A stretch of DNA of 31,811 nt from Candidatus Woesearchaeota archaeon. Its GTDB lineage: Archaea; Nanobdellota; Nanobdellia; Woesearchaeales; GW2011-AR4. Under the pieces are notes generated by a model. That model ran no database searches. It saw only the letters and a program-made list of their open reading frames with translations, and had not been told where the DNA came from. Below, piece by piece: positions 21,505 to 21,626 of the stretch. Positions within the stretch are counted from its first letter, which is position 1; the number at the start of each line of letters is the position of its first letter. Where the stretch lies: contig JACPMS010000042.1 in assembly GCA_016185875.1 (NCBI GenBank), positions 1 through 31,811 on the forward strand, written 5' to 3'. The position numbers and the translations under genes are program-made.

Positions 21505-21626
21505 GCCGCGGTAGGATAACCAGGTATTCCGGGAGCTTCAGACCCTCCTGCTCGAAAGAGCTTCTGGGTTCAAATTTCAGGAAGACTAGTTCAGTCCTTT
21601 CTTGGGTGAGACTCCCAGCCGCGGCG
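21505..21626 (+). tRNA. Type II tRNA, anticodon CAG in the canonical register (UCA in an alternative register), G73, 38-nt intron at 59/60 (21575-21612)
   Basis: Acceptor GCCGCGG/CCGCGGC, D arm GGAT-AACCAGGTA-TTCC, variable arm GCTC-GAAA-GAGC. Clean BHB (TTCA/TGAG helix, AAT and ACT bulges) whose splicing gives CTGGG-TTCAAAT-CCCAG. Mature length 84 nt. Confidence 0.85.

Follow-up and report, generated by a model that had tools for sequence, protein, structure and literature searches.

Serine-type tRNAs with changing N-A-N anticodons and a co-varying, putatively antisense element in a genus of Woesearchaeota

Introduction

Which amino acid is carried by a tRNA that combines the body of a serine tRNA with a leucine anticodon, and how might a cell keep such a molecule under control? 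The question is raised by a gene at positions 21505-21626 of a 31,811-nt stretch of DNA from Candidatus Woesearchaeota archaeon (contig JACPMS010000042.1 of assembly GCA_016185875.1), hereafter the window. Its source is a metagenome-assembled genome (MAG) of 770 kb in 95 contigs, 63% complete, in which the window is contig C14. Archaeal proteins are encoded on the window (thermosome, ELP3, LonB, FtsZ, GluRS), and the source organism is a DPANN archaeon with a small genome.

A first-pass annotation of the sequence had described the gene as a type II tRNA with serine identity elements and proposed that it could be a low-level CUG mistranslator, an opal suppressor, a leucine tRNA for a divergent LeuRS, or a decaying gene. 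The first of these proposals is still the leading one, the second is rejected and the other two are unlikely; the annotation did not cover the wider family with N-A-N anticodons or the co-varying antisense element described here. The gene belongs to an accessory tRNA family that is confined, as far as searched, to one genus of Woesearchaeota. We tentatively favour, at somewhat less than an even chance, the reading that its product is a missense tRNA which accepts serine and is restrained by a cognate antisense RNA; both charging and expression are what we infer from sequence.

An intact type II tRNA gene with an intron in the T loop

The gene consists of three parts:

21505-21574, plus strand: tRNA exon 1, positions 1-59 (5′ strand of the acceptor stem, D arm, anticodon arm, U44, variable arm, 5′ strand of the T stem and T-loop U54-A59), as given by the sequence, the covariation in 17 homologues and the 84-nt spliced product.
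21575-21612, plus strand: T-loop intron of 38 nt at position 59/60, as read from the sequence, with the 3′ end TGGGTGARAMT in all homologues.
21613-21626, plus strand: tRNA exon 2 (U60, 3′ strands of the T and acceptor stems, G73), as given by the sequence and by contigs from four samples.

Spliced, they yield an intact type II tRNA of 84 nt with the anticodon CAG. The acceptor stem is GCCGCGG/CCGCGGC, followed by the discriminator G73 (21626), and CCA is not encoded. The 7-bp acceptor stem and the 5-bp T stem (CTGGG/CCCAG) form a 7/5 fold, the D loop has 9 nt, and the hallmarks of a cloverleaf are present (U8, GG in the D loop, T-loop TTCAAAT). The variable region comprises U44, a 4-bp arm with a GAAA tetraloop, and UU. 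In the anticodon stem (GGAGC/CCTCC), C31 (21536) faces C39 (21544) in a mismatch, and the loop is UU-CAG-AC, with the anticodon at 21539-21541, A37 and C38. The serine-type architecture, the anticodon CAG, the C31:C39 mismatch, A37 and C38 were thus read correctly in the first-pass annotation. By eye, the splice sites of the intron can be fitted to a bulge-helix-bulge (BHB) motif, composed of the T stem, the 3-nt bulge ACU, the 4-bp helix UUCA/UGAG, the 3-nt bulge AAU and the intron hairpin, and its bases are conserved. In the minimum-energy structure given by RNAfold, the T stem and the intron hairpin are formed and the central 4-bp helix of the BHB is left open.

Scored over the 17 homologues, 94.8% of the alignment cells that should pair in the cloverleaf do so; sliding the partners lowers this to 37-50%. 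Both sides have changed at 11 pairs, among them four of the five in the anticodon stem as read in the canonical register; the cloverleaf is therefore far beyond chance. The fifth anticodon-stem pair, 31:39, is unpaired in 12 of these homologues. The bases that carry the reading (21530-21549 and 21626) had been flagged for verification. Logan contigs from four groundwater DNA samples are identical over 21402-21800, with zero differences, which settles the doubt about base calls. Minority letters at 21533, 21536, 21539 and 21541 jointly spell a relative with the anticodon GAC, and represent that relative of the window gene rather than errors.

Neither ARAGORN, with or without its intron mode, nor the Rfam model RF00005 gives a match at 21505-21626, because of the T-loop intron. 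In the whole source genome ARAGORN calls only seven tRNAs and Rfam only 11, and a pattern scan found introns at unusual positions, often in the T loop, in most tRNA genes; standard tRNA finders hence overlook most tRNA genes of these genomes. A further case is a gene at C21:4976-4858 of the source genome, called by ARAGORN as an intron-containing tRNA-Arg(TCT); comparison with the relative G006 identifies it as a tRNA-Ile(GAU) whose intron lies at 37/38. For genomes of this kind, automatic annotation of tRNAs is unreliable.

The anticodon register

With the register shifted by one nucleotide, the letters at 21538-21540 would give the anticodon UCA, as the first-pass annotation had considered. 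The anticodon stem of the family covaries in the canonical register (GGAG/CTCC, GCAG/CTGC, GGAA/TTCC, GATA/TATC, GGTG/CACC), and only there are U33 and A37 invariant; the shifted register would give G, C, U or A at position 37 and often C at 33. Because the stem changes in step and U33 and A37 are invariant in this register only, the anticodon is CAG. Reading the family members with GAC, GAU or GAA as Ser(UGA) one base early was rejected as well: normal Ser(UGA, GGA, CGA, GCU) genes exist, and position 37 would be C, U or A.

The register also bears on a selenocysteine tRNA (tRNA-Sec) or an opal suppressor, in which UGA would be read by UCA. Such an explanation could draw on the letters UCA and on the fact that tRNA-Sec likewise has G73 and a long variable arm, but its probability is negligible. 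The stem covariation is compatible with the canonical register only, the shift would place pyrimidines at 37 and C at 33 in relatives, and the fold is 7/5 and not 9/4. The tRNA-Sec model RF01852 has no match at the locus, and searches of five genomes of the genus, of which three are 90% complete or more, did not reveal the selenocysteine machinery that had been named as something to look for: SepSecS had no match, with positive controls detected, and PSTK and SelB had matches only far under the cut-offs. A tRNA-Sec would have a 9/4 (or 8/5) branch, a long D stem, UCA and selenocysteine machinery in the genome, and the window tRNA does not fit this description.

A serine-type body

Genuine tRNAs for comparison are available from G006 (1.25 Mb, 93% complete), the whole genome of which was scanned for normal tRNAs. 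The layout of U44, a 4-bp arm with a tetraloop and two further nucleotides in an 84-nt molecule is the same in the window tRNA, in the tRNA-Ser(CGA) of the window (30974-30702, minus strand) and in that of G006, so that the likeness noted earlier within the window is borne out. At equal length, the window tRNA is 70% identical to tRNA-Ser(CGA) of G006 and 54% identical to its tRNA-Leu(GAG), the latter value being the Ser-versus-Leu background. Ser(GGA) and Ser(GCU) of neighbouring genera have the same GCCGCGG acceptor and CTGGG T stem, and the D arm of the family is of the serine type. To judge from these comparisons, the body of the family is a serine tRNA. G73 and the long variable arm of the lineage's serine tRNAs are present; a serine anticodon (NGA or GCU) is not. 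The normal serine tRNAs of G006 (CGA twice, GGA, UGA and GCU) have G73 and loops of the form CU-NNN-RA. As a separate observation, the tRNA-Ser(CGA) of the window contains a complete second Ser(CGA)-like tRNA nested in its T-loop intron, and this nesting occurs also in G006 (C4:50689-50916) and is hence conserved.

The leucine tRNAs of the genus are built differently. The classical Leu(GAG) type is found in 31 of 41 genomes, and all 23 of its distinct sequences have a GCGGGGG-type acceptor, A73, G37, a long D loop and a variable arm with CTTAGTG; the D loop of the leucine tRNAs is AGCCTGGYCAAA or AGCGGCCAAA. Classical leucine tRNAs of G006 are GAG and UAA. A search with the variable-arm pattern identified classical Leu(CAA) in G036 and G001 and Leu(UAG) in G010, all with A73, and Leu(UAG) is probably present in G036 too. 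Three loose regular-expression scans for more leucine tRNAs returned mostly noise. The first-pass annotation would have lost its ground if all tRNA-Leu of the lineage carried G73; all the genuine ones found carry A73. With the leucine anticodon, the window tRNA has one feature of this class and lacks A73, G37, the long D loop and the CTTAGTG arm. Since the leucine tRNAs of the genus carry A73, G37 and a different body, it is not an ordinary tRNA-Leu. Position 33 of the classical tRNA-Leu(GAG) is itself unusual in two genomes: U33 is almost universal in tRNAs, and the genes of G006 (C12:112756-112671) and G028 (L289) have C33 in the loop UCGAGGG, where the other genus members have UUGAGGG.

A genus-wide family with changing anticodons

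In a DNA search, 23 of the 36 genomes of the genus contained homologues of the gene that include the intron, and there were essentially none in the rest of the order. Combining a covariance model with a pattern scan of the whole collection and a parser gave 35 non-redundant loci, spread over more than 25 genomes. Common to all members are the acceptor GCCGCRG and the T arm; G73 is present at 33 of the 35 loci, and 31:39 is mismatched at 25. The anticodons are GAG (9), CAG (7), GAU (6), AAG (5), GAC (4), GAA (3) and UAG (1), with no serine anticodon among them. Position 35 is A at every locus, and positions 34 and 36 vary (N-A-N).

The source genome holds three members, the CAG gene of the window, one with GAC (C4:1832-1986) and one with GAG (C16:2022-2136), and G006 holds four (GAU, CAG, AAG and GAC). 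Two pairs are syntenic: at the gltX locus the window has CAG where G006 has GAC, and at the locus of a tetratricopeptide-repeat (TPR) protein the source genome has GAG where G006 has AAG. The anticodon thus differs between paralogues and between species at the same locus, and it evolves faster than the tRNA body. Since anticodons differ at syntenic loci, the switches are real evolutionary events at fixed places. Members with GAC or GAU were considered as the cell's real valine and isoleucine tRNAs and rejected as such, G006 having normal type I Val(GAC, UAC, CAC) and Ile(GAU) with A73; because of these, the family members duplicate anticodons already covered. The genes adjoining six family loci are housekeeping only (gltX, dxr, Sua5, the TPR protein, an RNase H-like protein and a hydrolase), and no defence, toxin-antitoxin or integrase genes were found next to these six.

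Related forms were noted elsewhere. In four loci from MAGs of other genera, labelled Woesearchaeota or 'Aenigmatarchaeota' (L245, L250, L279, L255), G73 type II tRNAs have the same acceptor stem, anticodons GAU, CAG or GAA and perfect anticodon stems; they have no matching copy upstream of the kind described in the next section.

An upstream copy and a predicted antisense RNA

Four further elements lie upstream of the window gene:

21431-21468, plus strand: degenerate copy of the 5′ half of the tRNA (part of the acceptor strand, D-arm region, anticodon arm), a direct repeat.
21420-21468, minus strand: predicted antisense small RNA of about 45 nt, from a terminator-like scan site, conserved spacing and duplex energy.
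21491-21504, minus strand: promoter-like element with ATAAAG (BRE-like) and TTTATATA (TATA), 22 nt before the predicted start of the small RNA.
21346-21399, plus strand: conserved upstream element ending in TATTTAAA (21391-21398), a candidate promoter, with similar copies before two family loci of G006.

All family loci have the copy, at a distance of 45-58 nt upstream from the tRNA. An acceptor strand that could be used is missing from it, and the 5′ strand of its stem has diverged, whereas the 7-nt loop and the next four bases track the tRNA; in the window these last 11 nt of the copy, TTCAGACCCTC, equal the loop and the 3′ stem strand of the tRNA. Copy and tRNA have identical anticodons in 34 of 34 loci and identical 7-nt loops in 32; when copies are shuffled among tRNAs, 5.9 match on average and 16 at most. 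On either side of the loop, the copy is conserved even between species with different loops, and the loop is therefore being updated within an old element. A C/D-box guide RNA was considered for this element and rejected: no C or D boxes are conserved, and the CUGA of the window copy simply complements the anticodon.

The copy is accompanied by signals on the other strand. The minus strand of the spacer carries an A-rich stretch and a TTTWWAWA octamer in 33 of 34 loci; 19-23 nt (mostly 22-23) further on is the first base that is complementary to position 42 of the tRNA. In all 34 loci a T-run then follows after 34-42 nt, usually just after a GC-rich hairpin that is not present in the tRNA. In the window, the hairpin CCGGUUAUCUUACCGG (21445-21430, minus strand) precedes a U-run, and a terminator scan finds the site. 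The TATA of the window is only 7-14 nt from the 5′ end of the tRNA (about -10 to -19 in the family), whereas ordinary tRNA genes of G006 have theirs at about -28 to -35; by its position, the family TATA is too near the tRNA to serve it and rightly placed for the minus strand. These signals predict an antisense RNA of about 45 nt directed against the anticodon loop. Its 5′ end, GAGGGUCUGAA, would be complementary to tRNA positions 32-42, and its duplex with positions 4-42 is calculated at -53.1 kcal/mol, about 9 standard deviations below shuffled sequences (-22.2 +/- 3.4). A search for RNA sequencing runs listed none for this DNA. The element at 21346-21399 may drive a long precursor with the copy as its leader. 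Each gene of the family is part of a fixed module of promoter-like element, leader with copy, opposite-strand promoter and tRNA.

Two observations concern the borders of the module. Word depth over the segment 21351-21401 is about 40-fold that of the flanking sequence in each of the four metagenomes, and similar copies lie elsewhere; this promoter-proximal element is shared widely. The 306-bp module is bracketed by an identical 11-nt direct repeat, ATTTTTATTCT, at 21330-21340 and 21636-21646, which may be due to chance or to two T-rich terminators in an AT-rich genome. In addition, two relatives (L092/L241 of G016, and L276) have fusions in which the upstream copy runs straight into the 3′ part of the tRNA and the true acceptor 5′ strand is gone. 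These fusions arose probably by deletion through recombination between copy and gene, and they show that the family gene is dispensable in some species.

The direct repeats and the fusions are what would be expected if the tRNA were real and the copy a duplication or an integration scar in the anticodon loop, kept identical by gene conversion, with no antisense RNA being made. Integrases that target tRNAs leave direct repeats with an identical core and diverged arms, and integration at the anticodon loop of a tRNA would do so here; the two recombinant fusions and the 11-nt repeat around the module fit as well. Such an origin would leave several features unaccounted for: the flanks of the copy are conserved between species and the loop alone tracks the tRNA, the copy has gained a GC hairpin that is absent from the tRNA and lies directly before the minus-strand T-run, the TATA octamer keeps its 19-23 nt spacing in 33 of 34 loci, and no integrase is nearby. 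We regard a mere scar as distinctly unlikely.

The molecule could also be a tRNA-shaped regulatory RNA that acts off the ribosome, its loop serving as the pairing specificity for the antisense RNA or the leader copy. Both the drift of the anticodon and its co-variation would then follow, because the loop would only have to pair with these partners. That the anticodon outpaces the tRNA body in evolution and never changes without the copy is consistent with this, as are the frequent 31:39 mismatch and the judgement that many allo-tRNA(UAU) are unused in translation (PMC5389517). A further point comes from G001, which has six more G73 type II tRNAs, with the anticodons UAA (2), CAA (2) and GAG, all with G37, and GUC (Asp, one), at the following places:

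G001, further G73 type II tRNAs: C9:124684-124792, C3:74931-75033, C13:12788-12896, C2:2466-2574, C2:2885-3032 and C3:202445-202553.

Their acceptor stems are unlike those of the classical A73 leucine set. The three that were examined each have an upstream degenerate copy, preceded by an A-run and followed by a TATA-like box, which covers the D arm and the variable arm and not the anticodon; the design of tRNA plus antisense element may therefore be broader than the family studied here. What speaks against a role off the ribosome is that U33, A35, A37 and the 7-nt loop are strictly kept, although free drift would alter position 35 too, and that the acceptor stem, G73, T-loop and spliceable intron are maintained as a chargeable, ribosome-competent tRNA needs them. 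A purely regulatory RNA is thus considered fairly unlikely.

The C31:C39 mismatch, the unusual promoter geometry and the broken fusion forms in some relatives might alternatively mark a decaying pseudogene, as the first-pass annotation had also proposed. This is highly unlikely, given that all five helices are intact and kept by compensatory change, the splice motif of the intron is conserved, the sequence is identical in four samples, and the same design recurs at 35 loci in more than 25 genomes.

CUG as a leucine codon

In the thermosome gene of the window, 10 of 12 CUG codons fall at positions where leucine is conserved among 74 more distant homologues, in agreement with what had been noted for the window; of the remaining two, one is at a serine position and one at a variable position. 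GUC codons of the same gene fall at valine positions. CUG is frequent, at 16-23 per 1000 codons. By this codon usage CUG is not reassigned and clearly keeps its meaning of leucine. Because it is both frequent and at conserved leucine positions, any insertion of serine must be low or conditional.

The same usage would be explained if the gene encoded an ordinary, if oddly shaped, tRNA-Leu(CAG) that is charged by LeuRS for normal CUG decoding. The 63%-complete source genome and G006 yielded neither a classical leucine tRNA with CAG or UAG nor another tRNA with CAG, even with the variable-arm pattern. The A35 that is invariant in the family is an identity element for yeast LeuRS. There is one SerRS gene and one LeuRS gene per genome, and a search for a second SerRS or LeuRS dedicated to the family found only these; the SerRS gene of the source genome lies at C63:609-1856. 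The LeuRS has about 900 aa and scores about 150-180 bits, in pieces, against the 648 cut-off of the archaeal LeuRS model; on this match it is a divergent enzyme:

LeuRS by profile match: G006 C12:107842-110523, with orthologues; source genome C20:93-1223.

We nevertheless consider a leucine tRNA unlikely, and with it the earlier proposal of a tRNA-Leu adapted to a divergent LeuRS. The genuine leucine tRNAs (GAG, UAA, CAA and UAG) have A73, G37 and Leu-type arms, and the window tRNA shares none of the leucine-specific features set out above. Classical Leu(UAG), which could read CUG, is present in G010 and probably in G036, and G036 (93% complete, 8 contigs) has four classical leucine genes and zero CAG members of the family. 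At the orthologous gltX locus G006 has GAC instead, and the GAC, GAU and GAA members duplicate normal type I tRNAs, of which those for valine and isoleucine were seen in G006. The mismatch of 31:39 at 25 of the 35 loci is a further point against ordinary decoding.

A proposed missense tRNA with a cognate antisense RNA

Recognition by SerRS uses G73 and the variable arm and not the anticodon (PMC5389517, PMC6125640). Because SerRS relies on these elements, which the window tRNA has, charging with serine can be inferred: SerRS, not reading the anticodon, would charge the window tRNA, which would then insert serine at CUG (Leu) in competition with the genuine A73 leucine tRNAs, as its relatives would do at other hydrophobic codons. 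The antisense RNA of about 45 nt, starting at the complement of the anticodon loop and the 3′ stem strand, would bind both the leader of the precursor and the anticodon arm of the tRNA and so limit both. Activity or maturation could be limited by the cognate antisense RNA, by the mismatched 31:39, or by both. By analogy, the arrangement resembles a toxin RNA held by an antisense antitoxin. Serine-identity allo-tRNAs with leucine anticodons insert serine, kill E. coli and lie near toxin-antitoxin loci (PMC5389517), and a tRNA-Ser with the anticodon GAA or GAU is lethal in yeast (PMC6125640).

A more far-reaching form of this reading, which we hold to be possible but doubtful, is an undescribed RNA-RNA module. 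In it, a serine-charged missense tRNA for hydrophobic (NUN) codons and an adjacent 'anti-anticodon' small RNA would co-evolve into orthogonal pairs within one genome and would serve as a toxin-antitoxin system, with the tRNA as toxin, or for conditional mistranslation.

Several points weigh against a missense tRNA under antisense control. CUG is frequent and coincides with conserved leucine at 10 of the 12 thermosome sites, so that any insertion of serine must be low or conditional. With no other CAG or UAG tRNA found in the source genome or in G006, the window tRNA may be needed for CUG, and the invariant A35 could equally be an identity element for LeuRS. The identity of copy and tRNA could stem in part from gene conversion between adjacent repeats. 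Finally, the family loci lie among housekeeping genes and not in defence or mobile islands.

Relation to known systems

Natural code-breaking tRNAs are known from a few yeasts, Streptomyces and the bacterial allo-tRNAs. None is described in archaea in two reviews (PMC9499178, PMC11415595). Serine-type tRNAs with foreign anticodons are thus already known, in the yeast CUG clades and among allo-tRNAs. The CUG-Ser clades of yeasts (Candida, Ascoidea/Saccharomycopsis) likewise have a duplicated serine tRNA with CAG and a SerRS that ignores the anticodon, and in the CUG-Ser2 clade the tRNA has A37, as in the window, and genuine leucine decoding of CUG persists alongside (PMC11415595). In contrast to these, the window family is archaeal, CUG is still leucine, position 33 is a normal U, the anticodon varies among seven N-A-N triplets that include valine, isoleucine and phenylalanine anticodons, and each gene has a co-varying antisense element.

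Allo-tRNAs (Mukai et al., 2017; PMC5389517) are similar in being accessory and in combining serine identity (long variable arm, G73) with diverse non-serine anticodons. They insert serine at leucine codons, are toxic in E. coli, are often found beside toxin-antitoxin loci, and in some cases are seemingly inactive (PMC5389517). However, they occur in bacteria, and their defining features are an acceptor/T branch of 8/4 or 9/3 and a D arm of the Sec-like type (PMC5389517). The window family shares their serine identity and non-serine anticodons and does not have the 8/4 or 9/3 branch; it is archaeal, has the canonical 7/5 fold and a T-loop intron, and is limited to N-A-N anticodons. Its partner would be an RNA-level antisense element instead of a protein toxin-antitoxin pair.

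Type I toxin-antitoxin systems of the hok/sok kind and archaeal CreTA also have an antisense RNA opposite the 5′ leader with its own promoter and terminator, which in the window family are predicted. CreT acts via a tRNA and codon supply. Here, in contrast, the putative toxin is itself a tRNA, and the predicted antisense RNA also matches the mature anticodon loop; none of the known toxin-antitoxin families was matched. Partial tRNA copies at attL/attR sites are comparable in that a partial direct copy adjoins an intact gene. The copy of the window family differs in lying at a distance of only about 35 nt with no recombinase nearby, in tracking the changes of the anticodon, and in having promoter and terminator signals on the opposite strand.

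A literature search found no description of a serine-type tRNA paired with a co-varying antisense element, and the module of tRNA and antisense element has a real chance of being a new type of system. The family is unusual in three respects: the anticodon evolves more rapidly than the remainder of the molecule, the invariant A35 matches the codon column of the hydrophobic amino acids, and a neighbouring element with opposite-strand promoter and terminator signals tracks every change of the anticodon. If the tRNAs are serylated, these organisms have built-in, probably regulated mistranslators of leucine, valine, isoleucine and phenylalanine codons to serine; if they are not, the family shows a rewiring of the discrimination between LeuRS and SerRS. 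Either way, the family offers a testable system for how cells tolerate or use a miscoding tRNA and for the targeting of a tRNA anticodon by a small RNA.

A palindromic element in some family members

Within or beside the variable arm, some members of the family contain a second 'intron' of some 42 nt with the core GCGAGTGAGC...GCTCACTCGC, which can lie in either orientation. Copies of this palindromic element are dispersed over the genomes in the manner of a miniature mobile element, at the following places:

Palindromic element of about 42 nt: L107 (source genome C4:1832-1986); source genome C17:5197, C87:1001, C60:1023, C58:2043 and C31:1807; G006 C12:220298 and C4:44488.

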